From positions 16,545 to 80,544 of IMG/VR virus record IMGVR_UViG_3300025065_000001: a stretch of DNA of 64,000 nucleotides; one strand, written 5' to 3'. Of the stretch, positions 1,197-58,846 are shown in pieces. Made by a program: the position numbers and the translations under genes. A model generated the notes under the pieces. The model was not told the origin of the DNA. It did no database searches and saw nothing but the letters and a program-made list of their open reading frames with translations. Each line of letters opens with the position of its first letter. The stretch's first letter is position 1. Source of the DNA: a virus.

Positions 1197-1238
1197 TTCG
1201 GAAGATTCAAACCGCAAATAAAAATTTGGAGATTGACG

Positions 1239-4107: not shown

Positions 4108-5016
4108 GTGTCGGTTACCGCTGATTTTCAAGCCCAGTTCGAAGCTCTAGTTACAGGTTTAACAGAAGGGGAAACCGCTTTTGTTCGAAGTGAAATAGAG
4201 TCGGCCACCGTTGCTTTTCTGAATAATGTTTTCACTTCGCTAGCTGCAATGATAAGCGCTATGTCGAAGGAGGCGGAGGTAATTGGTTACGCGCCGAATG
4301 CTTTTGGCTATGAGGGAACGAGTAAACGAATAACCTCACGATGGCAAATTCGCAAAAATATAGGCTTAGGTAAAAAGCCTTTAACTCAAGAGCCGATGTT
4401 GTTCAGGGGGCTCAGTGAGAAAAAAGGCAAGACTTCTCTAGTTCAGTTGCTAAGACGATTAGGCAGCAATAATGATGTTGGTGCAAAGCTTTATACGGGA
4501 CTTGGGGGGCTTTCGTTGTCTCCGGTTGCTACGGGTTCCTCAGCTTTAAAGCCTGGGCTCAAGTTTTCAAAATGGGCGGGTAAAGCTTATAACCCTAGAA
4601 CCCGAGAATATGTGGCGTGGAAAGATGCCGTGATCCCTGCGGTAAATCATTACTTGAGACAAGGTGCGGTTAGAACCAATACAGGTGCAAGATTAGGTCC
4701 CAACTCTAGAGTATCGGTTGAAGGAAGACGAGGCCAGATATCGGTACAACGTGCCTTAGTTGAGGGGTTGGCCAGTGCCGGTATCAACGTGAGCTTCCTA
4801 TCCAAACTCAACAGCTTTTTAGGTGCTAAATCGGACTTTGATGAACTGGCCGACATACTTGAAACGTTAGGCTTAATAGACCAAAAGGAGCGAAACAAGA
4901 TAGGTCATTTGCATAAGTACAAGCACGCTATTTTGTTACCTTACTTTGGCGCCTTACTTTCTAGCACAGGAAAAAATTCTTTAACCGCTTACCTACAACG
5001 AGAGGGTGTCCTTTAA
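4108..5016 (+). CDS. Basic virion morphogenesis/neck protein (putative)
   Basis: Position in the neck module. Confidence 0.35.
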   Translation: MSVTADFQAQFEALVTGLTEGETAFVRSEIESATVAFLNNVFTSLAAMISAMSKEAEVIGYAPNAFGYEGTSKRITSRWQIRKNIGLGKKPLTQEPMLFRGLSEKKGKTSLVQLLRRLGSNNDVGAKLYTGLGGLSLSPVATGSSALKPGLKFSKWAGKAYNPRTREYVAWKDAVIPAVNHYLRQGAVRTNTGARLGPNSRVSVEGRRGQISVQRALVEGLASAGINVSFLSKLNSFLGAKSDFDELADILETLGLIDQKERNKIGHLHKYKHAILLPYFGALLSSTGKNSLTAYLQREGVL

Positions 5017-5475
5017 ATGGCCCAGTATATAAATATCCAAGCCTCTCTACTTCGGTTCTGTAGTGATAATGCAAAACTATTGCGTGCGCTTGTCGGAACT
5101 GAATTTAAGAGCCTCAACCTCGATGCCTTTTCCAATGAAGATGAGTTACCGGAAGGGGACTTTATTGGTATTGAGGATTTAGCCGTACAGTCGGCCACGG
5201 ACGATATTCCGCTAGACACACTTTCTGCGGCAGTAACGATTAGTACGGTATCCGACACTAACAATATGCGACTAACAAAAGTCGTAGATCATATTTTTGA
5301 GTGTTTAAGGCCAACGAAAGCCTTTACGCTTTTTGATGAAACTACAGGGGCTAGAAGGGGAAATATTACGTGTATGAATATGACCCAAATTCTTCCTGTT
5401 CAGGACGGAAAAAACTCTCGGGTTATTCAGTCGATAATTTTTCAGGCCTCAGCTTTAGATGAATCGACAAAATGA
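5017..5475 (+). CDS. Putative tail terminator
   Basis: 152 aa, upstream of the tail tube gene. Confidence 0.45.
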   Translation: MAQYINIQASLLRFCSDNAKLLRALVGTEFKSLNLDAFSNEDELPEGDFIGIEDLAVQSATDDIPLDTLSAAVTISTVSDTNNMRLTKVVDHIFECLRPTKAFTLFDETTGARRGNITCMNMTQILPVQDGKNSRVIQSIIFQASALDESTK

Positions 5476-5783
5476 GTAAGTCCTAAGTCCTTCAAGCTGG
5501 CGCAAACAGCGATTTGAAAAGCTTGTTGACGGGTGTATAGTGTTCGTTGGCAGTACTGATCAAGACGATTCAAAACTTTTTTGGGTAGTCTTAAGGTAAA
5601 GCTTTTTGATGATGCCGACTTAGGAACAACACGCATATCGATTGGACTTAAGTTATTGTGTAAAAAGTGGTCTAATAAGACGCGCAACTTGTCCGCATCA
5701 GATTCACCCTCAATAGGTGCTCTGGCTGCGGTCTCAAAAATGTTCGTGGGTGTGATGATTGAAATTGGTGTAAGTTTTGCCAT
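5442..5783 (-). CDS. Ribbon-helix-helix (Arc/CopG-like) DNA-binding protein
   Basis: SFTLRLPKKVLNRLDQYCQRTLYTRQQAFQIAV fits the RHH pattern; strong SD AAGGAGG. Confidence 0.65.
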   Translation of the reverse strand: MAKLTPISIITPTNIFETAARAPIEGESDADKLRVLLDHFLHNNLSPIDMRVVPKSASSKSFTLRLPKKVLNRLDQYCQRTLYTRQQAFQIAVCASLKDLGLTHFVDSSKAEA

Positions 5784-5838
5784 GTTTCATCCTCCTTCAG
5801 CAAGGTATCAATAATAACCTAAAATTTGGAGATTGACG

Positions 5839-6669
5839 ATGGCTGGTGAAGCTAAAACAACTGATTTTATGTTGGGTACTGCCACTGTAATGATTGGTAA
5901 CCCAGAAGACCTCTACAAACTAAACCCAGAACAACATTCTGTGGGCCTAGTTAAGAATTTCACAATCGAAGCAACCAAGGAACGTTCTGACCTTACCCAA
6001 GGCCGAACTAACGATGTTGTTTTCACACTAACAACCGGTGCCACGACTCGAGGCACATTCGAAATGTATGAATACACCGAAAAGAACCTTGCTTACGCGT
6101 TAGGTCTAGACGGTGGGGAGTTGGTATCTCCTGAAGGTGATGCTCACGTAGTTAAGACTTCTGCTTCTTTCTCAGCCGGTTCGGTTACTCTAGCTCTCAA
6201 TGATGGTACAGGACAGGATATTGAGGTAGGTAGTTGGGTTAGTGTTCGCGACCCTATTTCAGAAAATATTGTTTTAGGTACCGTAAAAACTACTTCAGGA
6301 CTAACGGATGGTACAGCAGCAACCGCTACTATCGAAGTAGAAGTCCCTGACAGCACTATGGCTTGGGAAGTTCCGGCTGGCGCATATGTATCCCTAGTAA
6401 CGGTACTTGATGTGGGCTCAACGGATGTTGACCGAGACTTTGCCGCTAAGGTTCAAGGCCAGCTAGCTAACGGTAAGTGGATCACACTTCTTATTCCTAA
6501 GATGCGTGTTTCTTCAGGTCTTACTATGGCATTTGGTACCGACAACTTCGGTAATACACCGTTTGAGTTTACGCCACTTAAAGTTACACCTTCCGATACT
6601 TACTATGCACCTTTCAAAGGTACCTCTGGTAAGTTAGTTCATGACTCAGTACAAAGCGCATTGTCGTAA
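5839..6669 (+). CDS. Major tail tube protein
   Basis: Thr/Gly-rich, 276 aa, precedes chaperones and tape measure; followed by a terminator. Confidence 0.75.
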   Translation: MAGEAKTTDFMLGTATVMIGNPEDLYKLNPEQHSVGLVKNFTIEATKERSDLTQGRTNDVVFTLTTGATTRGTFEMYEYTEKNLAYALGLDGGELVSPEGDAHVVKTSASFSAGSVTLALNDGTGQDIEVGSWVSVRDPISENIVLGTVKTTSGLTDGTAATATIEVEVPDSTMAWEVPAGAYVSLVTVLDVGSTDVDRDFAAKVQGQLANGKWITLLIPKMRVSSGLTMAFGTDNFGNTPFEFTPLKVTPSDTYYAPFKGTSGKLVHDSVQSALS

Positions 6670-6695
6670 AAACCCTGGGTCTAAAAACTGTTTAG

Positions 6696-6719
6696 AAGGC
6701 CTCTTCGGAGGCCTTTTTT
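6696..6719 (+). terminator. Rho-independent terminator
   Basis: AAGGCCTC-TTCG-GAGGCCTT followed by a T run. Confidence 0.85.
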
Positions 6720-6732
6720 AAGGAAATTGACG

Positions 6733-7080
6733 ATGAGTGATAACCCTCCTGTAACCTTTACTATCAGCGTTAACGACGAAGATAAAGAAGTTTTCATGAG
6801 TTTTGCGCTACTCAATACCATCACAGGGTATTTTAGAACTGCGGATGAACTCGAACAAATCTTACTAAATCCAGACGTTCGGGCGAGTGTCATTACTGAA
6901 CTCCTATCTGAAAGAAATGAGACGGGCCGAATAACCCAGAATTTCGATATTAATACAATGAAGGCAGACCCAGACCAAATACTGGACTTGCTGGAATGGG
7001 TATCGGAGCACGTTGAGACTTTTTTTATGAAGGCTCTACAAAGAGCCAAGCAACGAATGAAGAAGAAGCAGACCACTTAG
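6733..7080 (+). CDS. Tail assembly chaperone (lambda G-like)
   Basis: Between tail tube and tape measure; contains slippery T TTT TTT at 7020-7026. Confidence 0.75.
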   Translation: MSDNPPVTFTISVNDEDKEVFMSFALLNTITGYFRTADELEQILLNPDVRASVITELLSERNETGRITQNFDINTMKADPDQILDLLEWVSEHVETFFMKALQRAKQRMKKKQTT

Positions 7081-7391
7081 AAGTCTTCAATTCTTGGTAC
7101 CTAAAACTGTCGTTTGAAGAGCAGTTGTGTTTTGTTTTCGAAACGGTACCCAGCCAGCTACAGAAGATATTTTGGTCACATAGTAACCAAGATATCAAAG
7201 TTAAAACCAAGCTAACACTTGGCTTAAAGACTGTCACAATGACCCAAGAGTATGTGACGTTATTGAATGCCGCAGGGACTATCTTCGGTAAAAAAGAAAG
7301 TGGTTCAGGCAAGCCCAGACGTAAAACTACGAGCACGGTACCAAAAGATGAAATAGAAGCTGAGGCCCGAGCAAGAGCCGTTTTTGGGTAA
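7020..7391 (+). CDS. Tail chaperone -1 frameshift extension (lambda T-like)
   Basis: The -1 frame is open from just before the heptamer (stop at 7014-7016) to 7391. Confidence 0.7.
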   Translation, partial: FFYEGSTKSQATNEEEADHLEVFNSWYLKLSFEEQLCFVFETVPSQLQKIFWSHSNQDIKVKTKLTLGLKTVTMTQEYVTLLNAAGTIFGKKESGSGKPRRKTTSTVPKDEIEAEARARAVFG

Positions 7392-7410
7392 CAATTAGGG
7401 GAAATTGACG

Positions 7411-10400
7411 ATGGCCGGCAGCACTGCATCCAATACAATTAGAAATACCTTACTTAATTTTACCGTCGATCCTAAATCCAAAAAGGTAATCGAGGAACTA
7501 ACTCGCGAGTTTGAAAAGCTAGAGCGGGTCACACAAGCCGCGAGTCAACAACTTCAAGCCAACATTAAGGCCATTAAGGACACCCCACAGGGGCGCTCTG
7601 AACTCGCCCAGAACGCTAAGAATGAAGTTAACACCCAACGCAAAATCTTAAGTGAGAACCAAAAGAATGCGCGTGCGTTACTAGATCAAATTGCCTTAAC
7701 CCTTGGGAAGGGACTTAACCCTCAACAGCAACAGCAGTTAGTGAAAGGTTTGAATCAAGCCTTTGGGGAAATTACAGGTCGCTTCACTAAACAGGCGCAA
7801 GCGCAAGCCAAGAAACAAGCAAAGGACCTTGCTGATTATTACGATCTTCAATTTCGTAAAAACCCCACCGTCCCAAAAGGTAGCCAGCTCTATAAATCTA
7901 GAGTAAACGCGTTAAACGAAAGTGAATTGCGCACAGGTATTCAAAGGCAAAAGCTTTTACGTAGTGGAGCCCAAAGTGCGCTTAACGATGCTATTCGTCT
8001 GGGGGATGTTAGCCTTGAGAAGAAAGCTCAAAGTGCACTTAAGAAACTTGAATCGGGTTTAGTCGCTGCAGAAGCACGACTAAAGAAGTTTACCGAGGCT
8101 TCTAAAAAAGCAGAAGTAGCACAAGACACCCAAGCTAGAACCGTAAGACGAACCCTTAAATCCTACAATGATGATGAGTTTCGATTAAACCCTACCGTAG
8201 CTAAAGGGCAAAAGGTTAAAGCGTCTCAAATCTCTACGTTGAACAGAACTCAACTAGAGGACGCTATTGCTCGGAATAAAGTTTACGAGAATGCTGCCCG
8301 TAAAGCGTTGAAGTCCAGTCTGGCGCCGGAGACGAGAAATAAAACGCTAGAGAATAACGCGGGTAAAGCGCTAAGAGAGCTTGAAGAATCAACCAAGCTT
8401 GCCAAAGCACGTTTAAAAGAATTCGCTGATGCTGCGGCCGAGGCCAAACGCGCTGAAAAAGCCGCACAGAAAGCCCAGCGACCTTCGACACAAGTGACCG
8501 AACAACAGCGTGTAGCTCGTCGTATTGAACAGATTAGACAATCTCAAACCAATCAGCGCTTAGATGGCGGAGCCCAGCTATTCAGAAACCAAGGGCAATT
8601 ACTTCGTAACTACGCTGTGATGGGCGCCGGTGTTGGTGGCCTTGCAACGTCCGCGACTTTCTCAACAGAGTTAGATAGACAGTTCAAACAACTACAATCC
8701 ATTGTGAACCTCACCAATGAGGAAATGGAAGAGCTATCTAAAAACCTTATTGATGTTTCGGAGAAAACTAAGTTTACAGCCACGGACGTAGCGGATGCGG
8801 CCATAACGCTTGGTCAGGCTGGCTTAGGTCAAAATGATATCCAAAATGCGATAGAGGGCGTTACGCTCTTTGCTACAGCGGTAGGTTCGGACTTAAAAAG
8901 TGCCGTTGACCTAGCCACATCAACATTAGGGGTATTTAATAAAGACAGTTCGCAGATGACCAACATCGTAGACAAAATGACTACGGCTGTGAACAGCTCC
9001 AAATTGAACCTAGATAAACTCGCCTTAGGTCTTCAGTACTCGGGTAACTTAGCGGCCCAGTCGAATGTGACTTTTGAAGAAACGGTCTCCGCACTTGGCG
9101 CAATGGCTAACTCGGGTATCCGAGCGGGTTCGACACTTGGTACCGGCCTTCGACAAATTATTATATCCCTGCAGAAACCGTCAGAGTCTTTTACCGAGAT
9201 TGTACACAACCTCGGGCTCTCAATGTCTGACCTAGATATTACGACTCACGGTTTAATACCGGTAATGAAAACACTGGCCGAGAGTGGCTTTACTGTCCGT
9301 GATGCTATGGAAAGTATGGAAGTACGTGCAGCATCCGCATACGGAGCGTTTGCAAACAACATTAGCGTAGCGGAAGACTTAAGCGAACAAATGCGTATTG
9401 GGGGTTCTGCGGCCCGTGCGAACGACACGCAGATGGAAGCCTTAGCTAACCAGCTAGACCGTTTAGGCTCTATCAGTAAATCGATTGTATATGAGTCAAT
9501 GGAGCCACTACTAGACACTATTACCAAGCTTACTGAAAAGACCGCTGACTTTCTTTCAGTGGTAAGAGACCTCGGGCCAATTTTAAGCGCTTTAGCAGTA
9601 CCAGCTTCCATACTAGGGGGCGTACTGGCCACAAGAAGCGTTCTTCGTCTGGGAGCGGGGTTACTTGGCGGCGTCGATATGCTAACCGGAGGAAAAGGTA
9701 AAGGTAGCACAATCTCTAGGCTTGCTAAGGTTGCCACTGGTAGAGGATTAGGTACGGCTGCGGGGTTCGCCGCTCGTGCAATACCTGGGGTTGGGCTTGC
9801 TACTGCCGTAGGTACCGCAGGGGTTTATGGGTACCAGTACCTCGATGGCCGAGCCCGAGCTAATGATCGTGTTGATAGTACGCAAGCGGCCTTAAACCGT
9901 GGTACCTCTGAAACTAAGGTTTATGAAGACCAGCTTAAGAAAGTTGGGTCGGCTATCGATACGCTTATCTTAAAGCAAAATGACCTTACAAATAACGAGT
10001 CCCTTCAGCGCGAGATACGTCGTCTTAACGATGAGTTTCGTCAGCAAGGGTTGTACATCGATGATTCGATAGACAGCTACGACAAGCTTATTACCAAGAT
10101 GAAGGAGTTTGAGGACGCTACTCGTGATGGGGTGGGGTACCTTCAAACCCAAAACCGAAATAACTTTGTTGATAACTCTGAGGCTAAATTAAATGAGCTG
10201 TTTTCAATCGGCTTTTTCGATTCATCTGAGCGCAGACTATTAGCCCAAGAGAAGGGAACGGATGTTAGCGTTGGTAGCGGTAAAACCGCGACCCAACGAG
10301 GCCGCTTTGCCAGCCGAGGAAATGTTTATAGAAGTCTGATAGATACCGCGCTGCCGAATTTCGGGGATGATCTTGCGAGTATCAACGAGCTTATCCGCAA

Positions 10401-12732
10401 CATTAACCCCCAAGAGGCCGGTGCTTATGGTCGTGCACAAGAGGCACGCACGCAAACACAAGCATTGCAAAGCCAGTTATTCAATATCCTAAACCAATCC
10501 CCGCAAGAACTAGATTCTCTCATGGCGCAATTTGGCTTATCGGGTGATGCACGGGATAAAGCCGAAGAGTATATAAACAACCTTGCTCAAGAAATGCTTA
10601 ACCGAGCGAACACGTTACTGGAAGTGGAGAACAACCAGAAACAATACGATTCGTTAGACCCGAGTATCAAAGAGGAAGAGCGAAAGATTGCCCAAGTGGT
10701 AATTAAAAACCGTCGCGAACTGTTGAATGATATCGCTGAGACCAGCGAGGAAATCAATGCGTTAACAGAGAAAAACAAAGACTACGAGACCAGTGACTAC
10801 TTAGGCACATTCAAGGACATAAACACACTGGTTCGTGATCAGATAAAAGCCTTGCTCGAAGATGAGAAAGAGGCCATTGCGGAATTGGAAGCGCAAGGGG
10901 TTTCTAACCCTAGACTTGTGCTTCAAGAGCAAGGTTATTACCAAGCTGCAGGGGAAGCGAGAGGTAAGCTTGAGCGCTCTCTACAATCGGCTGCGAAAGA
11001 TGCAAGGCCGGATGCTAATTTATATTACCCCGCACGACTGGCTGAGTTAGATAAAGAGCTGGATGTACTGCGTGATCAACTTCGCCAAGTTACAGACCGA
11101 GAAACTTCAGATGAAATAAAAACTAAGCTCAAAGAGCTTAATCTCGAGCGAGAACGTGTGGCCAATGAGCAAGATACGCTTTTCGCGGCCATTGATGGTA
11201 ACTCTCCTGTTTCTGTTGCCCAGCGAGACAGAGAGCTCAATGCTCGGGTTACCTTGGGCAACCAAGAATTCGATACGATACAAGCCAAGACTTTTGCCCG
11301 TAGTCGTTTAGAACGTTCCATTGGTCAACAACAAGACCTAGACGTCCGCGATTTTAAATTGCTTGGGGATGATGATGAGTTATCGCGCCTCTTAACGGAT
11401 GTTATCGGAACCGAGCGCGGTGAGATAAACAATGCCTTGGCCAAAGCACGACAAGAAGCTGAAAAACTTCGAACCCAAGCGGAAGATACCCGCTATGAGG
11501 CCCAGCGCTATATTGATATCTCAAACAACGAAGGTTACACCGACGAAACCCGAGAGCGTGCTGCGGGTATTGCTAATGATATTGAGAGCCAAGCAGTACA
11601 ACTTGAGAAAGAGGCTATCGCTTTAGAAGAACAAGCCGTTCGACAAGCGAAAGAAGCCTTAACTGAGTTTGCTAATTATCTGCAAGAAACCATTATTGAT
11701 AACCCCGCGCTAACGGATGGCCGCTCAAAAGCTAAAACAAGGAAGTCAGTTGAAGATCTTGAGACACAAAATATTGGGTTGGACGCTAATCTCGAAGACC
11801 TGTCACAAGCCTCTAAGGAAGCGGATAGAGGCCTACGTGAATTTAGAGACCAGATGGGAGACACGATACGCAAGATAAATCAGAGTATTTATGAAAGCGA
11901 CCAATTCCGTAGAACCCAAGCCGCGATTTATGGCACTAAATATTCACCTCTAGGGGAGCAAGGTGTTGATGAAACCTACGGTGGGCAGGGAGGCAAAGGT
12001 GTAGCTTCTCAGTTCGCAAACGCTGGCTCTTATATCGTTGATGAAGTCAATAATAGTTACGAAAACTTTGACGTCTTGACCCAAATGACCTTAGAAGCTA
12101 CGGACGCGGCCAAAGGTTTAGGGGATGCGTTTGGTGCAACGTTCGCGGATATTATAACGGGTGCGGCGGAGGGAGAGGACGCCTTTAGAGCCTTAGGTGC
12201 GACTGTACTGACGGAAATGGCCAATATCGCGACCCGCGCTCTCGCCAACCAAATGATCTCGTCAATATTCTCTGGTCTAGGCCTAATGGGTGGCGGCGGA
12301 GGTTTAGGTAGTTTATTCGGTGGAGCCGGAGCGATGTTTACCGGCGGCCCAGTAATAGCCGGTAGCTATAAGACTGGGGGATTAATTACCAGTGGAATGT
12401 CTACTCGAGATTCAACCTACGCCAAAGTAAGCAGAGGGGAATTTGTATTACGTAAAGCTGCGGTAGATGCCCTGGGTTTAGAGACAGTTAAGGCTTTAAA
12501 TTCTGCCGACCCCAGCAGCGTTTCAGATAAAGAAATGATGACAAGTAGCGCAGCCCAGTCTATGTCTACAACAAACAGTAAAGATTCAGGAACCGTAAAC
12601 GTTTATGTAGTAAGCGAGAAACAGTTACCTCCGATGGGGCCAAATGACGTAAAAGCAGTAATTGGAGACGATATCGCCCGAGACGGTGAACTTGCTTCAC
12701 TAATCGCATCTGTAGCAATGAGGACTAAGTAA
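7411..12732 (+). CDS. Tape measure protein
   Basis: 1773 aa, helical; TP901-type core (TKFTATDVADAAITLGQAG...GIRAGSTLGTGLR). Confidence 0.92.
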   Translation: MAGSTASNTIRNTLLNFTVDPKSKKVIEELTREFEKLERVTQAASQQLQANIKAIKDTPQGRSELAQNAKNEVNTQRKILSENQKNARALLDQIALTLGKGLNPQQQQQLVKGLNQAFGEITGRFTKQAQAQAKKQAKDLADYYDLQFRKNPTVPKGSQLYKSRVNALNESELRTGIQRQKLLRSGAQSALNDAIRLGDVSLEKKAQSALKKLESGLVAAEARLKKFTEASKKAEVAQDTQARTVRRTLKSYNDDEFRLNPTVAKGQKVKASQISTLNRTQLEDAIARNKVYENAARKALKSSLAPETRNKTLENNAGKALRELEESTKLAKARLKEFADAAAEAKRAEKAAQKAQRPSTQVTEQQRVARRIEQIRQSQTNQRLDGGAQLFRNQGQLLRNYAVMGAGVGGLATSATFSTELDRQFKQLQSIVNLTNEEMEELSKNLIDVSEKTKFTATDVADAAITLGQAGLGQNDIQNAIEGVTLFATAVGSDLKSAVDLATSTLGVFNKDSSQMTNIVDKMTTAVNSSKLNLDKLALGLQYSGNLAAQSNVTFEETVSALGAMANSGIRAGSTLGTGLRQIIISLQKPSESFTEIVHNLGLSMSDLDITTHGLIPVMKTLAESGFTVRDAMESMEVRAASAYGAFANNISVAEDLSEQMRIGGSAARANDTQMEALANQLDRLGSISKSIVYESMEPLLDTITKLTEKTADFLSVVRDLGPILSALAVPASILGGVLATRSVLRLGAGLLGGVDMLTGGKGKGSTISRLAKVATGRGLGTAAGFAARAIPGVGLATAVGTAGVYGYQYLDGRARANDRVDSTQAALNRGTSETKVYEDQLKKVGSAIDTLILKQNDLTNNESLQREIRRLNDEFRQQGLYIDDSIDSYDKLITKMKEFEDATRDGVGYLQTQNRNNFVDNSEAKLNELFSIGFFDSSERRLLAQEKGTDVSVGSGKTATQRGRFASRGNVYRSLIDTALPNFGDDLASINELIRNINPQEAGAYGRAQEARTQTQALQSQLFNILNQSPQELDSLMAQFGLSGDARDKAEEYINNLAQEMLNRANTLLEVENNQKQYDSLDPSIKEEERKIAQVVIKNRRELLNDIAETSEEINALTEKNKDYETSDYLGTFKDINTLVRDQIKALLEDEKEAIAELEAQGVSNPRLVLQEQGYYQAAGEARGKLERSLQSAAKDARPDANLYYPARLAELDKELDVLRDQLRQVTDRETSDEIKTKLKELNLERERVANEQDTLFAAIDGNSPVSVAQRDRELNARVTLGNQEFDTIQAKTFARSRLERSIGQQQDLDVRDFKLLGDDDELSRLLTDVIGTERGEINNALAKARQEAEKLRTQAEDTRYEAQRYIDISNNEGYTDETRERAAGIANDIESQAVQLEKEAIALEEQAVRQAKEALTEFANYLQETIIDNPALTDGRSKAKTRKSVEDLETQNIGLDANLEDLSQASKEADRGLREFRDQMGDTIRKINQSIYESDQFRRTQAAIYGTKYSPLGEQGVDETYGGQGGKGVASQFANAGSYIVDEVNNSYENFDVLTQMTLEATDAAKGLGDAFGATFADIITGAAEGEDAFRALGATVLTEMANIATRALANQMISSIFSGLGLMGGGGGLGSLFGGAGAMFTGGPVIAGSYKTGGLITSGMSTRDSTYAKVSRGEFVLRKAAVDALGLETVKALNSADPSSVSDKEMMTSSAAQSMSTTNSKDSGTVNVYVVSEKQLPPMGPNDVKAVIGDDIARDGELASLIASVAMRTK

Positions 12733-13118
12733 TGTCGTTGGAACAATTTAATTTTATTTACCATAAGGTCTCTCACCGCTATAGGGACCGGTCAACTAAA
12801 CTCTCATTAGGTAATCAATGGGATTATGTAACTAAACCTACAGCGCCCGTTAGTCGGATATTCACACTTAAATATTCAGTAATGAAATATTTTGAAAATC
12901 CCCAGCTTCTAGGGCCAAAGGAAAGACGTTATAGTGCAGATCATTTGGATGAGTTTTACCAACGTCACGAAACATGGAAAGAATTCCTTTTCCAACATCA
13001 TAAGTTTGGTAATGTTGTTGTTCGATTTGACCAAGCGCTAGAGTTACCAGAAGGGATTACTGGCGGAGACGGGGCGATAGAACCCTTTACGGTAGTGTTG
13101 CGTGAGGTAGCACTTTAA
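12732..13118 (+). CDS. Distal tail protein (lambda M-like)
   Basis: Follows the tape measure gene; 128 aa. Confidence 0.55.
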   Translation: MSLEQFNFIYHKVSHRYRDRSTKLSLGNQWDYVTKPTAPVSRIFTLKYSVMKYFENPQLLGPKERRYSADHLDEFYQRHETWKEFLFQHHKFGNVVVRFDQALELPEGITGGDGAIEPFTVVLREVAL

Positions 13119-13155
13119 TTAATAAAATATTTATTAATTAATTTAAACAATATTA

Positions 13156-13184
13156 TTGACAATAAAATTGTGTGTCCGTAATAT
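13156..13184 (+). promoter_or_regulatory. Sigma70-type promoter
   Basis: TTGACA (13156-61), 17-bp spacer, TAATAT (13179-84). An AT-only palindrome lies upstream at 13115-13141. Confidence 0.75.
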
Positions 13185-13190
13185 TGACCT

Positions 13191-13269
13191 CGGTTAGTAG
13201 TCCAAGTGGCTCCTAATTATCGTCAATTTCCAAATCAACGCCTCAGCCTTGCTGGGGTGTTCTGTTTTT
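13191..13269 (+). ncRNA. Putative trans-acting antisense sRNA (~80 nt)
   Basis: Lies between promoter and terminator; contains ATCGTCAATTTCCAAAT, the reverse complement of the start-associated box of 27 genes. Confidence 0.7.
13237..13269 (+). terminator. Intrinsic terminator of the putative sRNA
   Basis: AACGCCTCAGC-CTT-GCTGGGGTGTT, an 11-bp stem with 2 G.U pairs (valid only on the + strand), then CTGTTTTT. Confidence 0.7.
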
Positions 13270-13338
13270 GGGCGTTTGAAAAATATTCAATCTATTCCTC
13301 TTTTCGGTATACTAAGCGAAAATTGAGGGAAATTGACG

Positions 13339-13827
13339 ATGAAAGAACTTTCACAAGAAATTCAGTCTCAACGGCATTCGCTGACCCCTGAAGACTTAAC
13401 CACCTATCTAGAACTCATTATCGAAGACCCTGATGGTCAGCCGGTTATCATTCGTCTTACGGATAGAGAAACCCGTGAGTGGAAAGGTACCACATGGGTG
13501 CATTCTCCTTTTAAAGTGACTGGGGTTGGAAACAAATCCAGCGGTGAGAAAAATCGTCCTAGTTTATCCCTCCCCAATGAAGGGGGGCTTTATAGTTACT
13601 ACTTGAACCAAGGTCTTTTAGAGGACTCCGTGGTAACCCGTTATAAAGCTCTCCCGCATGAGAAGGGGGGAACCCTCACTTCCAAACACGTATTTTATGT
13701 TTCACATGCCAGTAATATCAGTGCCTCTATCCTAACTCTTCAGTTGCGAAGGCTTTCTGACGGTAACAAAACAAAATTCCCACCCCGCAGATATGTGCAG
13801 CCAGAGTTTAGAACGGTAATCGTATGA
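13339..13827 (+). CDS. Minor tail protein (lambda L-like)
   Basis: Position; WKGTTW...PFKVTG...RPSLSLPN pattern. Confidence 0.6.
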   Translation: MKELSQEIQSQRHSLTPEDLTTYLELIIEDPDGQPVIIRLTDRETREWKGTTWVHSPFKVTGVGNKSSGEKNRPSLSLPNEGGLYSYYLNQGLLEDSVVTRYKALPHEKGGTLTSKHVFYVSHASNISASILTLQLRRLSDGNKTKFPPRRYVQPEFRTVIV

Positions 13828-14321
13828 TCAAAGAATTAAATACCTTTTGCGGCCATGTGTATGAACAAGGCATTCAGGATTGTTATACCTTGGTTCGCGA
13901 TTTCTACAAGGTCCGTTACCAGATGGACCTTACTAATTACGCTAGACCTAACAACTGGATTCTCGACCCTAATTTAGATTTCTTTACCAACCTATTCCAG
14001 CGTGAAGGTTTTGAAGATACCAATAATTGCCCTCACAAAGTTAGGTTCGGCGATGTATTGATGATGCGAATTGTTGGAAGTGAAGTCGTAAACCACGTAG
14101 CAATTTATGTTGGCCGACAGAAAATACTTCACCACTTACAAGGCCGCGTAAGCGAAATCGTTGACTATGACGATAAATGGCGTTTCCGTGTGGTTCGTGT
14201 TGTAAGACACCCAGAAATTGAGAAAACGACGGATGCTGTAGCCCTTCACAATCTGCATAAAGGTTTACCCATTCACCTACGTGCAAAATTACGGAGTGCG
14301 AATAGTGAAAAAGTTGAGTAA
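13824..14321 (+). CDS. NlpC/P60 tail tip protein (lambda K C-terminal-like)
   Basis: QDCYTLVRDFY and NHVAIYVG...ILHH motifs. Confidence 0.8.
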   Translation: MIKELNTFCGHVYEQGIQDCYTLVRDFYKVRYQMDLTNYARPNNWILDPNLDFFTNLFQREGFEDTNNCPHKVRFGDVLMMRIVGSEVVNHVAIYVGRQKILHHLQGRVSEIVDYDDKWRFRVVRVVRHPEIEKTTDAVALHNLHKGLPIHLRAKLRSANSEKVE

Positions 14322-14640
14322 TTTGTGGAATGACACGGCTGAGCGCTGTGGCTTTATTCTTAAGTCCGGTGAAATTGTTGAGGTAGATAATATTGCCGAG
14401 GACCCTAAGAATGAATTTGAGGTCTCCGAGGCAGACTTTGAAAAGTATTATGCCAATGCCGTAGCGTCTTGGCATTCTCATACGGATGATTTCTCCAATC
14501 TAAGTTTATCTGATTATTATACATTCCTGTCTCTACCGGAGTGGGATCATTGGATAGTGTCTAAATACAAATCGGTAAAATTCTCCGTGAAATCCGAATG
14601 TGTAATTTTAGAAGAGGTAGTACCCCATGGTGACGATTAA
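14305..14640 (+). CDS. JAB/MPN-domain tail protein (lambda K N-terminal-like)
   Basis: ERCGFIL...WHSH...LSLSD motif; GTG start after GGAG. Confidence 0.75.
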   Translation: MKKLSNLWNDTAERCGFILKSGEIVEVDNIAEDPKNEFEVSEADFEKYYANAVASWHSHTDDFSNLSLSDYYTFLSLPEWDHWIVSKYKSVKFSVKSECVILEEVVPHGDD

Positions 14641-15391
14641 GTTGGTTGGGTTTAGCAATGCTATCCCTAAAGTTATTAAGACCGTTGCGGCAAATTATAG
14701 AGAGGCCCTTGAAGCACTGAAGCTACAAGAGGCTTTTAACCCTCGCAAGGCTAAAGTTAGATATGTCTGTGAAGTCGAAGGGCTTAATTCCACCTTGGAC
14801 TTAGACGAGCCGGTTATGGATGGGGTTATGACGTTACGCCGCAAGCAAACACTTAAGACACTTAAGGGCTTTCAGGGTAGTGGTGGTAACAACGGCTGGG
14901 TAAAAATAGTTGTTGGTATAATCTTGATCACCGTGGCGATATTAGCACCGCCGGTAGCCGCAGGGTTCGCGGCCTTAGGTTCGGCGGGTATGGTAAGCAT
15001 AAACCTTCTCGTGGCTAACTTAGGTTTAGCGCTTATTGTAGGCGGGTTAGCCCAAGAGCTGATGCCCACACCAGAGAATAATACTTCGGATGAAACGAGT
15101 AATACCGCTACCTCATACCCCAACACCATACGTTCAGGTACCCCCGTGGCGATGATTTTTGGGCGCCATAGATTCGGTGGCCATCTATTTCAGTTCAATA
15201 TTGAAAGTGTTGGTAGGTCGTCAGCAGATATTCGAAATTTTACTAACGTTGTTTGGGATGAAGTTAGTGACAACAGACGAGATTCTTGGTCTACTCTATA
15301 CTTCAATAGTGAGTCTCAAGAAGTAGGCCAAACTACTTCGACCCCCCGAGGGCGCGAGACTGATGGTATAAGAGCAACACAAGTTTTTTAA
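14627..15391 (+). CDS. Tail assembly protein (lambda I-like)
   Basis: GSGG followed by hydrophobic segments; NTIRSGTPVAMIFGRHRFGG. Confidence 0.75.
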   Translation: MVTIKLVGFSNAIPKVIKTVAANYREALEALKLQEAFNPRKAKVRYVCEVEGLNSTLDLDEPVMDGVMTLRRKQTLKTLKGFQGSGGNNGWVKIVVGIILITVAILAPPVAAGFAALGSAGMVSINLLVANLGLALIVGGLAQELMPTPENNTSDETSNTATSYPNTIRSGTPVAMIFGRHRFGGHLFQFNIESVGRSSADIRNFTNVVWDEVSDNRRDSWSTLYFNSESQEVGQTTSTPRGRETDGIRATQVF

Positions 15392-15423
15392 AATCTGGCT
15401 AAATTGACGATATTGGGGCTTCC

Positions 15424-18400
15424 GTGACGCATAACACGTTCAAGGGCCGCGGAGGGGGTAGTGGACCCTCGAATGACGCGGACAACCTATTTTCTACAGA
15501 CGCATTTGAGTTTGTCCTTGGGATATCCGAAGGGCCGATAGGCGGCGTTGTGGGAGATACCCCCGAAGAAAAGCTTCGCAATATCTTTATCGACGACACC
15601 CCAGTCTTTAACAGCCTCAATCAAACAAACTTTGATAACGCCAGCTTAATGCTGCGTTTCGAGCAAGGTACCTTAATTTCAGCTAAGGACGACCCCGAAG
15701 AAGGGCAGACCCCTATTTGGTTTGGTCTGGGTGGCCAGAACGTCATTCAGCAAGTGTCGGCAAACCTAGCATATCAGGCTCCAATAACTAGAGTTACTGT
15801 ACCCACTGTAGCGGGATTTGACGAAATTGAATTGCGGTTCACCGTGTCTCAGTTAGTCAAATATACGGATGATGGCTCTAAAAGGCATAGTGCGAATTTC
15901 AGAATCCAATACAAGAACCTATTGGATGATAACTGGAATACAAAAACTATGACCATTTCAGGTAAAACCACGGTTAGTCCTTTTGTGAAAGTTCACAATA
16001 TACGGATGGCCAGAACCAAGCCTGAAGACCAGTTTGAAATTAAAGTTACTCGTCTTACTGAAGATTCTAATGAGGAAGAAGTAGCGGCGATATCTTGGAC
16101 CAGTTATGAACTACTTACCAAATCTGGGGATGCCTACACCGACAATGGGGTTGAATATAGCGACCCCGATTTAGAGTACCACCCTGGACTTGCGATGATG
16201 CACGTTGTGGGTGTTCTCGGCCAGCAGCTCACCAGTATCCCTAACGTAAGCGCGAATTACGATGGTATTAAGTGTTCAGTTCCTTCGAACTATGACCCAA
16301 AGACTAAAACCTATGAAGAAAGCTCAGCATGGGATGGGCAATTTAAAGCTGAAAAGTCTACTACGGATAATCCTTTTTGGATTGCACACGAGCTGGTTAC
16401 TAATCCAGTGTGGGGTATTGTCAAAGCCAATCCACGGGTAAAGATAAATCGCTATAACGTCTATCGAATGGCGAAATATGCGGACGGTTATGACCTTCAA
16501 ACCAACGAAAAGAACTTAACTAATCCGATTACAGGTCAGGAGAAAGCCCCGCGCTACGCCTTCAATGCCGTATTAACTGAGCCTCAAAATGGTTGGGACG
16601 TTCTTCGTTATGTTTTAGGTAGTGCTTTCGCTAGGCCTATTGAAGAAGACTCGGGCGAAATAAAGTTTATCGCGGATTTGCCGGATCTTCCTGTTGCGTG
16701 GGTTACTCCTGAAATGTGCGTGGCCGAGACCGATGGCTCCCCGTTTTCTTATAATTTCTCTGCCTTATCTGAGCGTCACAATGCGGTGACTTCCAGTTAT
16801 ATCGACGCATCTTTGGACTACCAACAACAGTACGTTGCTGAGATACGTGATGAAGACTCCATTCTAAAATACGGGCTAAACACACATGAGTTTGATGCTA
16901 AAGGCGCGACTGATGTGTGGGAAGTGAAACGACGAATGACGTTTTACATATCATCCGTAACGACTGAAGTTAGAACGGTTTCGTTCTCTGCCCCTCAACT
17001 GGGGATGGAGTTTGAACCGATGGATATTATTAACATCGTAGATCCTGAAACAGGCCATGCCTATTCTGGTAGGGCTGTGAAGTTAGAGAGCAAGGCTGTC
17101 ACACTTCGAGACCCTGTGTATTTTGATGAAGGCGGCACCTATAACGTAAAAGTTATGGGTAAGTACGAGAATTTTGACTTCACTATCGATGTGCTGTCTT
17201 CGGATGTTGGCCGACCTATTTACCGGCTAAAACTAAAACAGCCAATGCCAGAGCTTACACTTTTTAATAAGTATGCACCGGTTGTTGTTTCGGCATCTAA
17301 GAATGGTCAGCTTATAGGTCTACCTAAGCCTTGGCGCATCATAAGTGTTACTGAAAACGACAGCGTACCCGAGCTCTACGATTTCTTTTGTCAGGAAGTA
17401 AACCTAAACAAGCATGGTGACGCTGACAACCTAATTATTTCTGAAGCTCCTAAATACTCGTTTCTTCTGAGACCACAAGTTCGCAAGGTTAAGAACCTTC
17501 GCGTTTTGGATGAAGAGCATATTCAGGTTCGTGGAGTAGAGCAGATAAACCTTTGGATTGGTTGGGAGCTAGAGGCCCCTTTACCGCCAGGGGGTTATTT
17601 TGAAGTTCGTATTACAGAACAATCGGTTAATGGCCGAGAGTACACCACGAAAACCAACAACCTTTATTTCGAGATTCAGAACGTAAAATTAGGCGATATC
17701 CAAATTGAGGTACGTAGTGCCCAAGGGGACAACGCTAGTCCATGGACCGTTCTGCAATGGTCTACAACTATGGTATCCGCTGAAGATTTGAGAGACGCGG
17801 GTATCACCCCAGAAATCACTATTCGCTATGAGAACTATGCCCTAACTATTGATAGTAAAGTAATGTTTGACTTTGGCTCTACAGAAGTTAACCGCGTTAA
17901 CTTACTTGAGACAAATGGTGTGTTGGGTATTCAGTTTAAGATATACGACGATGTGGACCCAGATAACCGCGTACACCTTTTGACCAAGACCGCAAAGTCT
18001 TCGCTAATTATCCCTAAAAGCGAGTTCGAGGTTGCTGTTGAAGGTAAGGAACTGCCTTCTGATTTATATATTACAGCACGCGTTGTGGATCTTGTCGGAG
18101 GCTTTTACCCCGACCTATTCCAAAGCCCTCTAGCATTCCAAGTAAGTAACCCCGCGCAAGAGATAACGAACTTAAGCTATCAATACGTTTTCTCTGATGA
18201 AGACCCGCATTTGGTAACGTGGGATGATAACAACTATGGGTATGAAATCACGCTTTATAAGCCGGATGGCCAGAGCGAGATTTCTAGTTACAAGATATAT
18301 GACAGTAGCCAAGTATTCGGGTTCTTACGAGCAGCCGAAGGTTATGTCGTAAAAGTTAAGGGTTTTACTAATACACTTAGCTACGGCAAGCCTAAGACGA

Positions 18401-19986
18401 TAACGTTCACGGTTACCGCACCACCAACCCCACCAGAAGAACCTACTATCACTAACGAAGGCGGCATTATCACGCTTACGCCTCCGAAAGTTGATAAGAC
18501 TTCTAGTTACTATGAGTTCAAATACCATAGCGAGAATGTGATCACGGAAGCGACGGACTACTCGAACGGAAGTACGATCACTCTTTATTCCTCTGCAGAA
18601 GGTCAAGTCTTCCATATTTGGTACCGCTTAGCCTCTAAAGAAGGTTTTGGCGCATGGGTACGTAAAGAGATTACGGCAACAGAAGCCTTCCAAGTAGACC
18701 TTGGGAGTGTTGTAAATGAGGTGCTTAACTACGAGGGCCCAGATTGGGGTAAATCCCTAAGCGACAGCATCACACAGATGCTTGCGGATATGACTATCTG
18801 GGATGAGAGAACCACAGCGTTAGGTGATACCTATGAGAACCTAATCCTAACTCAGTCAAGTCTTGACGATGCCAATAAGATTAACTCCCTCGATATTATG
18901 GCGCTAAGGGGTAAGGTCGGAGATAAAACCGTTCAGACCCAAATTGTCGAAAATAATATCGTCCAGATTGGCTATGAAGATGATGAAGGTAATTGGGTCA
19001 TGGGTGCACCATTGGCCCGTGCTTTCACTGAGCTAAAAATCAAAAATCTAGATGGTGATTCCGTCTCGGTAGTCAGCTACATGCAAGCGTTAGAAAACGC
19101 TATGGGTAACCTAGAAGCAACCTTTACCCTCGGTGTAGTTGATGAAGAACAAACGTTTACAGGTTTAGAGATTACAGGGGGCAGCGGGGTCAGCGCGATT
19201 AAGCTTTATATGGATAACCTAACGTTCGCCAATAAAGCCGGAAAAGACTTTTTTACCTACGACTCTGCTTCTCAGAAGCTCGTAATGACTGCGGATGTTG
19301 AGGTTAGAGGAACGTTAGTTTCAACCCGAAAAATTACGGTTACACCAAATGTTATGGAGATTGAAGACCCTAATGGCTTTGGTCCAGATAATCTTTGGAT
19401 ATGGAAAGGTACCCCAATTCTCAACGGTTCTGACCCTAATTACAGTGCCCTTACAAAACAGAACGCATCCCTAGGCTGGCGAGACCTTAACGGTAACGAA
19501 TATTTCGGTGGTTCTGTGACTACCGGCCAGTTGATAAATGGGGGGGATAGTACCTTATTGTCTCTCAACCCTTCGGTTGAAGTCGGTCCATTTACTACTA
19601 ATGGTAACCCTAAATTGGTGAGCTGTAGCTTAAACTGGCGCGGGACTTACTCATGGGACGAAGCGTGCCCAACTAATCAAGGGTTTGTTCCTGAAGCAAC
19701 GATCATTTTAGAGCGTAGTTTAGGGGGTGGGGGGTGGTCAGAGCTTCAACGCCAAGTCTTGACAGGGACAGTCACATACCGCGAGTTTGATGATCCTGAA
19801 CACGGCGTTACAACCTGTACCATGGCTGAAGTTTCTGGGGGCTCATTTACCTTCACAGATACTAGCACCTCCCTTGCAACATTCACTTATAGGCTACGAG
19901 TGACAAACCAGCAGCGTGCATTACTACAACAATTTATAGACTTACAGCGTTTGAGTCTCGTTAGTGTAGAAGAGAGACCCGCCTAA
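15424..19986 (+). CDS. Central tail fibre/tip attachment protein (lambda J-like)
   Basis: ISEGPIGG and WDGQFK...TDNPFW motifs, FN3-like region; 1520 aa. Confidence 0.88.
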   Translation: MTHNTFKGRGGGSGPSNDADNLFSTDAFEFVLGISEGPIGGVVGDTPEEKLRNIFIDDTPVFNSLNQTNFDNASLMLRFEQGTLISAKDDPEEGQTPIWFGLGGQNVIQQVSANLAYQAPITRVTVPTVAGFDEIELRFTVSQLVKYTDDGSKRHSANFRIQYKNLLDDNWNTKTMTISGKTTVSPFVKVHNIRMARTKPEDQFEIKVTRLTEDSNEEEVAAISWTSYELLTKSGDAYTDNGVEYSDPDLEYHPGLAMMHVVGVLGQQLTSIPNVSANYDGIKCSVPSNYDPKTKTYEESSAWDGQFKAEKSTTDNPFWIAHELVTNPVWGIVKANPRVKINRYNVYRMAKYADGYDLQTNEKNLTNPITGQEKAPRYAFNAVLTEPQNGWDVLRYVLGSAFARPIEEDSGEIKFIADLPDLPVAWVTPEMCVAETDGSPFSYNFSALSERHNAVTSSYIDASLDYQQQYVAEIRDEDSILKYGLNTHEFDAKGATDVWEVKRRMTFYISSVTTEVRTVSFSAPQLGMEFEPMDIINIVDPETGHAYSGRAVKLESKAVTLRDPVYFDEGGTYNVKVMGKYENFDFTIDVLSSDVGRPIYRLKLKQPMPELTLFNKYAPVVVSASKNGQLIGLPKPWRIISVTENDSVPELYDFFCQEVNLNKHGDADNLIISEAPKYSFLLRPQVRKVKNLRVLDEEHIQVRGVEQINLWIGWELEAPLPPGGYFEVRITEQSVNGREYTTKTNNLYFEIQNVKLGDIQIEVRSAQGDNASPWTVLQWSTTMVSAEDLRDAGITPEITIRYENYALTIDSKVMFDFGSTEVNRVNLLETNGVLGIQFKIYDDVDPDNRVHLLTKTAKSSLIIPKSEFEVAVEGKELPSDLYITARVVDLVGGFYPDLFQSPLAFQVSNPAQEITNLSYQYVFSDEDPHLVTWDDNNYGYEITLYKPDGQSEISSYKIYDSSQVFGFLRAAEGYVVKVKGFTNTLSYGKPKTITFTVTAPPTPPEEPTITNEGGIITLTPPKVDKTSSYYEFKYHSENVITEATDYSNGSTITLYSSAEGQVFHIWYRLASKEGFGAWVRKEITATEAFQVDLGSVVNEVLNYEGPDWGKSLSDSITQMLADMTIWDERTTALGDTYENLILTQSSLDDANKINSLDIMALRGKVGDKTVQTQIVENNIVQIGYEDDEGNWVMGAPLARAFTELKIKNLDGDSVSVVSYMQALENAMGNLEATFTLGVVDEEQTFTGLEITGGSGVSAIKLYMDNLTFANKAGKDFFTYDSASQKLVMTADVEVRGTLVSTRKITVTPNVMEIEDPNGFGPDNLWIWKGTPILNGSDPNYSALTKQNASLGWRDLNGNEYFGGSVTTGQLINGGDSTLLSLNPSVEVGPFTTNGNPKLVSCSLNWRGTYSWDEACPTNQGFVPEATIILERSLGGGGWSELQRQVLTGTVTYREFDDPEHGVTTCTMAEVSGGSFTFTDTSTSLATFTYRLRVTNQQRALLQQFIDLQRLSLVSVEERPA

Positions 19987-21269
19987 TGAACTATCTCCGA
20001 AATTTTACCTCCGTCTCTATAAATACGAATGAAAACGTTGTTCAAATTAATGACAACGTTTCAAACTTTGCGATTAAAACAAATAGTCAGTTATTTATAG
20101 AAGGATATTCCATACCCGTTACGGTGGAGAGCTCTAACACTCAGGATAGAACGCTAACACTTACAGCGCCTTGGCCAAACGCTAACGTTGTAGAAAAAAC
20201 CGCAAAGATAATCCCGTTAGGGGACGCCGACGTTTATTTAAGTGCCGTTGAAGCTAACAGAGCTGCTTACGACGCATTAATTGAGGCTATAAATAATCCT
20301 GCGGGGGATTTGCAACCCGCGGTGGAGGCAGCGCTTAATTATTTATACACGCAAGTGGCCCAGAGCGCTCCGGTTGAGAAAGAAGAAAATCTATCTCATC
20401 GATTGATTGATTACCCAACATATAAACCTACAGAAGAGTTGCCAACCGAATCCCCCAACGATAAACGGCTTATGCTGTTTGATAATGTGCGAGGTTTATT
20501 CCATGTGGCTTTTACAGACCGTTGGTTCACGGTACCAACTAATCTAGAAAGTCGAAGGTTCGCGGTATTTTACAGGGGACTAATTCTTCGATTTAAAAAT
20601 AACAGTTCCTACACTGGCACTATAAAGATGCGTGTATATCCGATGGGGGTTGGTGGCTTAGGCTTACCAAATAACCCGACTTTGGCGAACCATCAATGGC
20701 ATGTATATGAAACTACCGTTACTGAGCTTTATAAAATCGGTGAGTTTGGGAGCCAGTATTTCGAGGGGATCATTGACTATGTTCAGCTCGAGACAGGGTG
20801 GCAAACCTTCGACACAGATATGTCTGACTGCAGCTCATTAAATGCTAGCTTTGATACCGCGTTCGGTACGCTCAAAAGCCCCTTTAAACAATTTCACCGT
20901 CGAGCGGATGGCTTTTGGTATAGCGAAGATATGATGCCAACTACACCGAATGCTATGGGCGCAAGCTGGGCTCAAGACCCGAATAACCCTCGCGTGTTTA
21001 CGGTAACGGGTGCTACGAGTGGAACTGACGCTTTACGTTTCTTCGGAGACGCATTCGATGAATTCCAATTTGAACTTATCTTAGACGTATCTTACGTCAG
21101 TGGCACCCTCGCACTAACAGTCTCCAACAGTGACCCGAACAAGGTTTATTACCCTGGACCTGCAAGATTTATAACCGATGAAAGAATTTACTTTAAAAGA
21201 GCCGGTTCAGAAGTTACCGCAGCTCTGACCGTAGAGTCCATTAAAATGAGAATACCCCATTATGAATAG
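19986..21269 (+). CDS. Putative tail fibre/receptor-binding protein
   Basis: Follows J; N-terminal fibre-attachment-like segment, beta-rich C-terminus. Confidence 0.5.
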   Translation: MNYLRNFTSVSINTNENVVQINDNVSNFAIKTNSQLFIEGYSIPVTVESSNTQDRTLTLTAPWPNANVVEKTAKIIPLGDADVYLSAVEANRAAYDALIEAINNPAGDLQPAVEAALNYLYTQVAQSAPVEKEENLSHRLIDYPTYKPTEELPTESPNDKRLMLFDNVRGLFHVAFTDRWFTVPTNLESRRFAVFYRGLILRFKNNSSYTGTIKMRVYPMGVGGLGLPNNPTLANHQWHVYETTVTELYKIGEFGSQYFEGIIDYVQLETGWQTFDTDMSDCSSLNASFDTAFGTLKSPFKQFHRRADGFWYSEDMMPTTPNAMGASWAQDPNNPRVFTVTGATSGTDALRFFGDAFDEFQFELILDVSYVSGTLALTVSNSDPNKVYYPGPARFITDERIYFKRAGSEVTAALTVESIKMRIPHYE

Positions 21270-27414: not shown

Positions 27415-27487
27415 TCATTTACAGTCTTGCTTAAGGGTAGTATGCTTGATTGAAAATTAGGCTAATTGACGATACTTAGGCGGCAAG

Positions 27488-28902: not shown

Positions 28903-28921
28903 CGATAATTGGAGCTACAAC

Positions 28922-35789: not shown

Positions 35790-35813
35790 GCTCAACTCGT
35801 CAATTCATATTTT

Positions 35814-56860: not shown

Positions 56861-56863
56861 TTT

Positions 56864-58789: not shown

Positions 58790-58846
58790 CGTCAATCTCC
58801 AACAAGTTAATTTCAAGAGGGGGAGAACATTCCCCCTTTCAGGGTT

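Follow-up and report, generated by a model that had tools for sequence, protein, structure and literature searches.

The 64,000-nt stretch analyzed here (the window) comprises bases 16545–80544 of the 80,544-bp IMG/VR virus record IMGVR_UViG_3300025065_000001, which carries direct terminal repeats at its ends. A short gap between two genes of this phage contains a unit (13156–13269) that very probably encodes a conserved, structured plus-strand RNA, with a seed complementary to a sequence box found at the translation starts of many phage genes. With a little better than even probability this RNA acts as a trans-acting antisense small RNA (sRNA) that occludes the Shine-Dalgarno (SD) sequence and AUG of the box-bearing messenger RNAs (mRNAs).

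The unit begins with a predicted near-consensus sigma-70 promoter on the plus strand, P1 (13156–13184), consisting of TTGACA (13156–13161), a 17-nt spacer and TAATAT (13179–13184). It scores 10/12 and shares the top score among the promoter-like sites of the region 5000–20000. The plus-strand stretch upstream of the −35 hexamer (13119–13155), which is A/T-rich in all five clades described below, with differing sequences, resembles an UP element and may act as one. The RNA is predicted to start at about 13190–13192 and to open with a 5′ stem-loop, SL1 (13192–13218; GGUUAG.AGUC, loop, GGCU.CUAAUU), evidenced by the folds and by covariation. It is followed by the unpaired 18-nt seed AUCGUCAAUUUCCAAAUC (13219–13236), in which positions 13219–13235 are the exact reverse complement (17/17) of the box ATTTGGAAATTGACGAT. 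The unit ends with an intrinsic terminator (13237–13269), comprising an 11-bp hairpin (13237–13261) with two G.U pairs and the subsequent CUGUUUUU; with six G-C pairs among the 11, it is the strongest terminator-like site in 5000–20000. Further downstream on the same strand, a second promoter-like site, P2 (13286–13313), was seen in the sequence, with TTCAAT and TATACT separated by 16 nt. It could start the mRNA of the downstream tail gene at about 13320, past the seed.

The plus strand of the unit folds into a stem-loop, 18 open nucleotides and the terminator (−22.6 kcal/mol, z −3.75), while the minus strand is unremarkable (z −1.27). The initial annotation of this region, made from the letters alone, had described the promoter, a terminator whose G.U pairs let it fold on the plus strand only, the anti-box at 13219–13235 and a seed left single-stranded between the 5′ stem and the terminator; all of these features were recovered. 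The search for tRNA and tmRNA found neither, and no Rfam family was matched at the gathering threshold; with a permissive E-value the best match in 13100–13400 reached 14.8 bits against a cut-off of 56. A 61-codon plus-strand frame crossing the unit (13206–13391) was rejected as coding on account of 2-nt indels in the terminator loop among relatives. The minus-strand frames that follow the box, being 3–10 codons long and not conserved, were also rejected as genes.

The box has the consensus GGA(A/G)ATTGACGAT or, as a tag including an optional G, GGA(A/G)AUUGACGAU(G). It takes in an SD-like GGAG or GGAA, the start codon and the constant 7 nt between the two; the letters after it are G, ATG or TATG, and in most copies its distance from the ATG is 0–3 nt. 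The 17-nt form GGAAATTGACGAT has 18 matches in the window at up to three mismatches, compared with 0.21 expected, and the 13-mer GGARATTGACGAT has 32 matches at up to two mismatches, compared with 2.4 expected. In the whole genome the box followed by ATG occurs in 25 exact copies, and the reversed control in none. The orientation of the box switches with the gene arm, and the anti-box of the unit is the sole well-matched copy opposing local transcription, in agreement with the initial annotation. A second opposed match at 7844, with two mismatches and located within the tape-measure gene, was discarded as chance-like.

The 80.5-kb genome has 61 sites at which the seed can form 11 or more contiguous pairs; an ATG-started open reading frame (ORF) of at least 35 aa adjoins 45 of these sites. 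About 40 of these 45 are box-type gene starts offering 12–19 contiguous pairs to the seed; about 29 lie in the window, for which the earlier figure of about 27 target genes was a fair estimate. Predicted seed duplexes of −15 kcal/mol or stronger are formed at 34 of 123 ATG-ORF starts (frames of at least 60 codons), while 20 shuffled seeds give 0–1. The box-bearing genes include head, tail, replication and early genes. Boxes are present at the starts of the major head protein gene (1224–1240, plus strand; 18 contiguous pairs, duplex −23.5 kcal/mol), a 276-aa structural-arm gene (5824–5840, plus strand; 19 contiguous pairs, −23.5 kcal/mol), the tape measure gene (7400–7412, plus strand; found by the motif and seed-pairing scans) and a 391-aa early-arm gene (56310–56326, minus strand; 18 contiguous pairs). 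The 276-aa gene lies upstream of the tape-measure chaperone gene, and its product matches only phrog_28493, of unknown function. The target nearest to the seed, and its partner in cis, is the box with ATG (13328–13341, plus strand) of the adjacent downstream tail gene (13339–13827). Overall, one small RNA probably masks the starts of about a third of the genome.

A repeated module stands in front of many early genes; in it, a G/C hairpin of the type GGGGGGAATGTTCTCCCCC is followed by AATTAACTT, TAAAAT or TACAAT, and the box. Such modules are located on the minus strand of the window (58805–58850, 59858–59900, 62105–62150 and 63042–63085) and, outside the window, at genome positions 1611–1650, 4876–4920, 5737–5780 and 7131–7175. 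The hairpin looks terminator-like, and the A/T part may serve as an early promoter from which the message begins exactly at the box. In addition, TTAACTTT resembles the translational enhancer “epsilon” of T7 gene 10.

The gap containing the unit is shared by eight close relatives. In comparison with three relatives, the sRNA is 97–100% identical, while the flanking genes are 77–84% identical; the fraction of columns identical in all is 0.97 for the sRNA and 0.67–0.68 for the flanking genes. Only 13100–13399 has 100-nt bins in which at least 85% of the columns are identical across four genomes. The few substitutions among close relatives fall in the loop of SL1, where they are the sole change within that element, in the loop of the terminator and close to the predicted RNA start.

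More distant relatives, found in viral and metagenome contigs with a profile of the upstream protein, extend the comparison to five clades. These are G000, comprising this genome and its close relatives (upstream-protein identity 86–95%), L052, a 1.8-kb contig (66%), G001 (L025-27; 65%), G003 (L028/29; 46%) and G004, represented by the 45%-complete fragment L030 (45%). All five carry, in the same gap, the A/T-rich stretch, promoter, 5′ stem-loop, anti-box and terminator, followed by the TATACT promoter-like site. The P1 hexamers are kept in all clades (TTGACA, TTGACC, TTGACG or TTTACA with TAATAT, TAGTAT or TAATCT), with unrelated spacers in the distant ones; at P2, TATACT is present in 5/5 clades and TTCAAT in 4/5. 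The most conserved block of the RNA is the seed core AUCGUC(A/G)AUUU. Relatives that keep the boxes and lack the unit, named earlier as the case that would speak against an antisense regulator, were looked for: the unit is present in 5/5 box-bearing clades, and in three distant relatives (34% identity or less) the flanking genes abut, with neither the unit nor boxes. Judged from these alignments, the unit is under purifying selection.

The degree of conservation bears on the possibility that the inverted copy is a functionless relic, either what is left of the 5′ end of a lost minus-strand gene or a gene leader inverted by chance. The minus strand does look like a box-type leader with an SD-like GGAG behind it, is similar to the leader at 28894–28925, and continues only into tiny non-conserved frames. 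However, an identity of 97–100% next to coding DNA of 77–84%, retention in five clades with compensatory changes, and conservation of the plus-strand promoter and terminator make this explanation extremely improbable. An origin by inverted duplication is possible, yet the present element is under selection.

The leader at 28894–28925 is one of three on the plus strand of the window, together with 27461–27490 and 56548–56577, in which the box core lies 13–15 nt 5′ of the ATG and is followed by bases similar to the complement of the sRNA's 5′ stem (type GACGATAATT-GGAGC-AC). Pairing extended into the 5′ stem was found at three sites of the phage genome, with 11–12 of 18 matches and one gap; clade G001 has no such site and G003 has one weak site. 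This is suggestive at most of extended pairing, or of an sRNA gene that arose when such a leader was duplicated in inverted orientation.

The structure of the RNA is retained along with its sequence. Each clade folds independently into a stem-loop, 16–18 open nucleotides and a terminator (z −3.5 to −5.8), and in all five the seed stays open in both the minimum-energy and the centroid structure. A covariance model based on the three nearest clades detects a single strong copy in each genome, and recovers G003 at 47 bits (E 6e-9) and G004 at 26 bits (E 8e-4). In a 9-sequence alignment fitted to this model all pair cells are standard pairs, and 8 of the 21 pairs change on both sides, four of them in SL1, where 10/10 pairs are intact across the nine sequences, and four in the terminator, where the loop alone varies in length. 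This value was not attained by any of 500 shuffles, and slid partners give no double changes. At five positions G.U or U.G is the commonest pair, and therefore the fold is available on the plus strand only. The U tract after the terminator is weak in clade G004.

Co-variation between the seed and the boxes in related phages, suggested as a check of the antisense reading, was found at two positions in four genomes, the sample being completed by fetching the full records of three other clades. In G000, the box letter before GACG is T in 33/33 copies and the seed has A; after GACGAT the boxes have G (25), A (7) or T (1), and the seed has U. In G001, the first position is T in 16 and C in 10 boxes, opposite G in the seed, and the second is G in 19 and A in 7, opposite U. 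G003 has T in 22/22 boxes with A in the seed, and G in 22/22 with C in the seed. In G004, C is present in all 12 boxes counted and the seed has G, while the second position is G in 11 and A in one, with C in the seed. Since seed G pairs with both U and C, and seed U with both G and A, wobble-capable seed letters occur exactly where the boxes of the same genome are mixed, as expected if one RNA pairs with many RNAs. The box of G004 is one base shorter (GGAATCGACGATGA), and the seed complement is shifted over the AUG. The G001 seed has 55 sites in its own genome, and the G000 seed has 33 in the G001 genome.

Across the whole G001 record (L036–L039), the two forms of the box are unevenly distributed: C-variant copies (ATCGACG) cluster in the structural arm and T-variant copies in the early arm, so that the arms appear to differ in history or in constraint. 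A 3′ extension of the seed, CCAAAU, was considered and rejected: it matches a subset of boxes only, and its G003 equivalent, CCACGU, has no partner.

The box could also be read as a DNA site for a protein, similar to a stoperator, with the inverted copy being one more site. A 13-bp asymmetric motif with about 40 co-oriented copies would be consistent with this, as would the joint change of the copies within a genome, which is typical of operator sets, and the location of a box-like site near a gene with a helix-turn-helix (HTH) domain. However, the box is fixed at 0–3 nt from the start codon and includes the SD-like GGAG/GGAA, which points to translation, and the inverted copy sits in a promoter/stem-loop/terminator unit with compensatory pairs that depend on G.U and thus on one strand. 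Moreover, the wobble-compatible letters of the seed obey the rules of RNA pairing. A DNA-binding role of the box is therefore very unlikely.

The antisense reading implies the following mechanism. The segment 13156–13269 would be a stand-alone gene for a non-coding RNA of about 78 nt, expressed on the plus strand from a strong host-type promoter. The RNA would pair in trans with the box-bearing starts over 13–19 bp, excluding 30S subunits, and much of the phage genome would be held back by this one post-transcriptional regulator; pairing and repression of translation presumably take place in vivo. The ProQ/FinO-domain protein of the phage may assist by holding the terminator hairpin. Read-through copies would carry the seed into the next mRNA and fold back on its start, enabling P1 to be active without expression of the tail gene. 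The purpose can be guessed to be the silencing, in lysogens, of leaky prophage messages and of the early messages of superinfecting relatives.

Pairing in trans might instead lead to cleavage or processing by RNase III, stabilization of the messages or temporal re-programming of the lytic cycle. From general knowledge of antisense RNAs, duplexes of 13–19 bp are long enough for RNase III, and the presence of boxes in both early and late genes would suit a general processing signal equally well. Nevertheless, the duplex covers both the SD and the AUG, for which a block of translation is the default outcome, and no computed result points to cleavage or activation, making an outcome of this kind unlikely.

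The putative assisting protein is encoded on the minus strand (35283–35795, 170 aa) and contains a ProQ/FinO domain (PF04352, E 7.5e-13, 48.9 bits with a cut-off of 27). Homologues are present in the two other near-complete clades, G001 (71% identity) and G003 (48%), and none was found in the 45%-complete fragment of G004. FinO-family proteins of plasmids and phages bind the terminator hairpins of antisense RNAs (PMC9977716), and the protein of this phage is a candidate chaperone of the sRNA.

Another non-coding unit, with a promoter-like TTGACC/TATACT pair and a strong terminator, lies outside the window at genome positions 9260–9520 on the minus strand (locus L057), and repeats of the GGTTCTTGGGT type come after it. 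It contains a 19-nt perfect match to the sRNA seed that no start codon follows, and could be a decoy for the sRNA. As a core component of the system such a “sponge” was rejected: it is 91–96% identical in four close relatives and absent, except for the box, from G001 and G003.

Transcription of the region was assessed in four marine metatranscriptome runs, in which the deepest contigs over 12000–15000 start at 13206, 13207, 13208 or 13239, with a depth of 5–11 compared with 0–3 upstream. The contig starts thus lie some 15 nt downstream of the predicted RNA start, which hints weakly at activity of P1 in nature. A product of about 78 nt would be lost from such libraries, and parts of 12000–15000 that have no cover do not count as silence.

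These contigs span the terminator from about 13206 into the next gene, and this observation, along with the folding of the read-through RNA, forms the basis of an alternative in which the unit acts in cis only, as a leader or attenuator. The seed would then be an anti-Shine-Dalgarno element for the adjacent start (13328–13341), and the other complementarities, about 40 in number, a by-product of the common tag. In the minimum-energy fold of 13192–13360 the seed pairs with the box of the adjacent gene around the terminator hairpin; a cis role on this start is supported because such a fold recurs in every clade tested (4/4, z −3.3 to −6.2). The AUGAU of the adjacent gene in G004 is matched by the 5′ portion of the seed. 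On the other hand, the G003 seed mismatches the adjacent box (GGAAACTG) and matches 17 other boxes exactly, and the adjacent box of L052 falls one base short of the seed complement. The wobble letters track the genome-wide set of targets, which a single partner in cis would not need. A strong promoter followed by a strong terminator, with P2 located beyond the seed, is an arrangement expected of an sRNA gene; P2 would yield a tail-gene message free of the seed, and omitting P1 would suffice to limit the next gene. An exclusively cis-acting element retains a minor share of the probability, larger than that of the other alternatives, and the conclusion drawn is that of an sRNA gene with a leaky terminator, the read-through transcripts masking themselves. 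The initial annotation had proposed a global antisense repressor: its discrete conserved unit, anti-box seed and expected co-variation are borne out, while the cis alternative had not been considered there.

Several points weigh against repression in trans and have to be set beside the evidence above. One sRNA facing about 40 abundant lytic messages presents a problem of stoichiometry. The metatranscriptome contigs cross the terminator up to 13400–13502, which indicates incomplete termination, and the 78-nt product itself was not observed; the contigs are strandless, carry-over of DNA is possible, and the four studies may belong to one campaign. Co-variation was followed in four genomes and involves few evolutionary events, and part of it would also arise from a DNA-level reader that keeps all copies of the box alike in either orientation. 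The seed also folds recurrently onto the adjacent start, so that a cis element would look identical and share most of the co-variation. The repressor-like HTH gene has a box-like site as well, a poor fit to a simple lysogeny-lock model. Finally, scans of genome contigs for the host with one protein profile and one sRNA pattern found nothing.

The closest parallel to the box is the start-associated sequence (SAS) of Cluster K mycobacteriophages, which is conserved beyond the SD, was proposed to be read by “either RNA or protein” and has one inverted copy away from gene starts (Pope et al. 2011, PMC3203893); its role was still “not known” in 2024 (PMC11373665). Both are 13-bp asymmetric motifs with an SD-like core, located near many starts in one orientation and accompanied by a lone inverted copy. 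The SAS motif itself (GGGATAGGAGCCC) is, however, unrelated, and it is confined to non-structural genes, whereas the phage described here also tags head, tape-measure and tail genes. The hosts also differ, being actinobacteria for Cluster K and a marine, probably proteobacterial host here. By sequence comparison, the box is thus an analogue of SAS and not a member of it. No anti-SAS RNA is described or proposed in the SAS literature found. In Adephagia (L056 38610–38730, record 58609–58729) the single inverted SAS is located between genes 92 and 93, which are separated by 430 nt of non-coding sequence, and occupies the 10-nt apical loop of a long predicted hairpin (−67.9 kcal/mol, z −6.8) that adjoins a second strong hairpin. 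This inverted-SAS hairpin is a candidate anti-SAS RNA.

Among phage small RNAs, the c4 RNA of P1/P7 (immI) and the CI RNA of P4 give immunity by pairing with ribosome-binding regions, and their targets include ones located downstream in the same transcript. The predicted folds of four clades are similar in this respect, in that the read-through transcript contains both the seed and, further downstream, a target. In contrast, c4 and CI hit one or two sites of a single operon, while about 40 dispersed genes share the target here, and they are processed from a longer transcript, while the RNA described here has its own predicted promoter and terminator. No homology to c4 was indicated by Rfam matches.

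FinP/FinO of F plasmids, RocR/RocC of Legionella and Inc/FopA likewise rely on a structured RNA with a terminator hairpin and U tail, the unpaired stretch of which blocks a ribosome-binding site (PMC9977716). Another similarity is the presence of a FinO-domain protein on the same mobile element, as in this phage. FinP and Inc each act on one target, and RocR on a few competence genes of the host, whereas the predicted targets here belong to the phage's own genome and bear a uniform tag. The Rfam search showed no homology of the RNA to the FinP, RocR and Inc families. The stoperators of Cluster A mycobacteriophages, named in PMC3203893, are also numerous co-oriented 13-bp asymmetric sites across a temperate phage that enable genome-wide silencing by one regulator. 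They are, however, DNA sites for a repressor protein, act on transcription and are not locked to starts, while the sites described here overlap the SD and AUG and the regulator is apparently an RNA. A phage RNA aimed at a genome-wide start tag was not found in the literature.

It is possible, although doubtful at present, that unrelated temperate phages share a “tag-and-mask” strategy, in which a uniform ribosome-binding-site tag and a constitutive mirror sRNA, possibly with a FinO-type chaperone, provide lysogen silencing and superinfection immunity, with specificity set by seed/tag co-variation (A-seed versus G-seed). Such a strategy would explain both the Cluster K SAS, the function of which has been unknown since 2011, and its lone inverted copy. 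In any case, the SAS puzzle of conservation beyond the Shine-Dalgarno sequence and a stray inverted copy becomes a testable question. Antisense RNAs that block ribosome-binding sites are well known, their targets being one or few messages. This phage appears to have standardized about 40 of its own translation starts, structural and early, which one RNA of about 78 nt could then address. If it acts in trans, the RNA would constitute a second, post-transcriptional layer of prophage silencing or immunity beside the protein repressor, encoded in less than 120 bp and with reprogrammable specificity.

The gene content of the record is consistent with a temperate phage. The plus-strand arm codes for the major head protein, tape-measure chaperone, tape measure and minor tail proteins, and the minus-strand arm for a family A DNA polymerase, an origin-binding-type helicase, a tyrosine integrase and the ProQ/FinO-domain protein. 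The integrase (29487–30725, minus strand; Pfam PF00589, PF12167 and PF13102) marks the phage as temperate, and three relatives are proviruses according to the IMG/VR classification, which therefore also indicates a temperate lifestyle. Two relatives, IMGVR_UViG_2895548450 and 2895532408, are entered as proviruses in IMG genome records, and experiments would be feasible if these records correspond to cultured strains. The DNA and RNA runs containing the phage are marine, and the FinO domain suggests a proteobacterial host. A blastn search of window positions 12000–15000 against 50,697 phage records gave zero matches.

The genes flanking the unit had been named M and L, after tail genes; these were positional guesses, and family searches give no such identity. 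The upstream gene encodes a 128-aa protein with a sole match to phrog_34212 (unknown function), and the 162-aa product of the downstream gene (13339–13827) has no family match. Within the minus-strand early arm there is a two-gene plus-strand island (56471–57622), which contains a weak match to an XRE-type HTH (22.2 bits, with a Pfam cut-off of 23) and a second product of 252 aa with no family match. This island is probably the repressor region, and its leader bears a box-like site.

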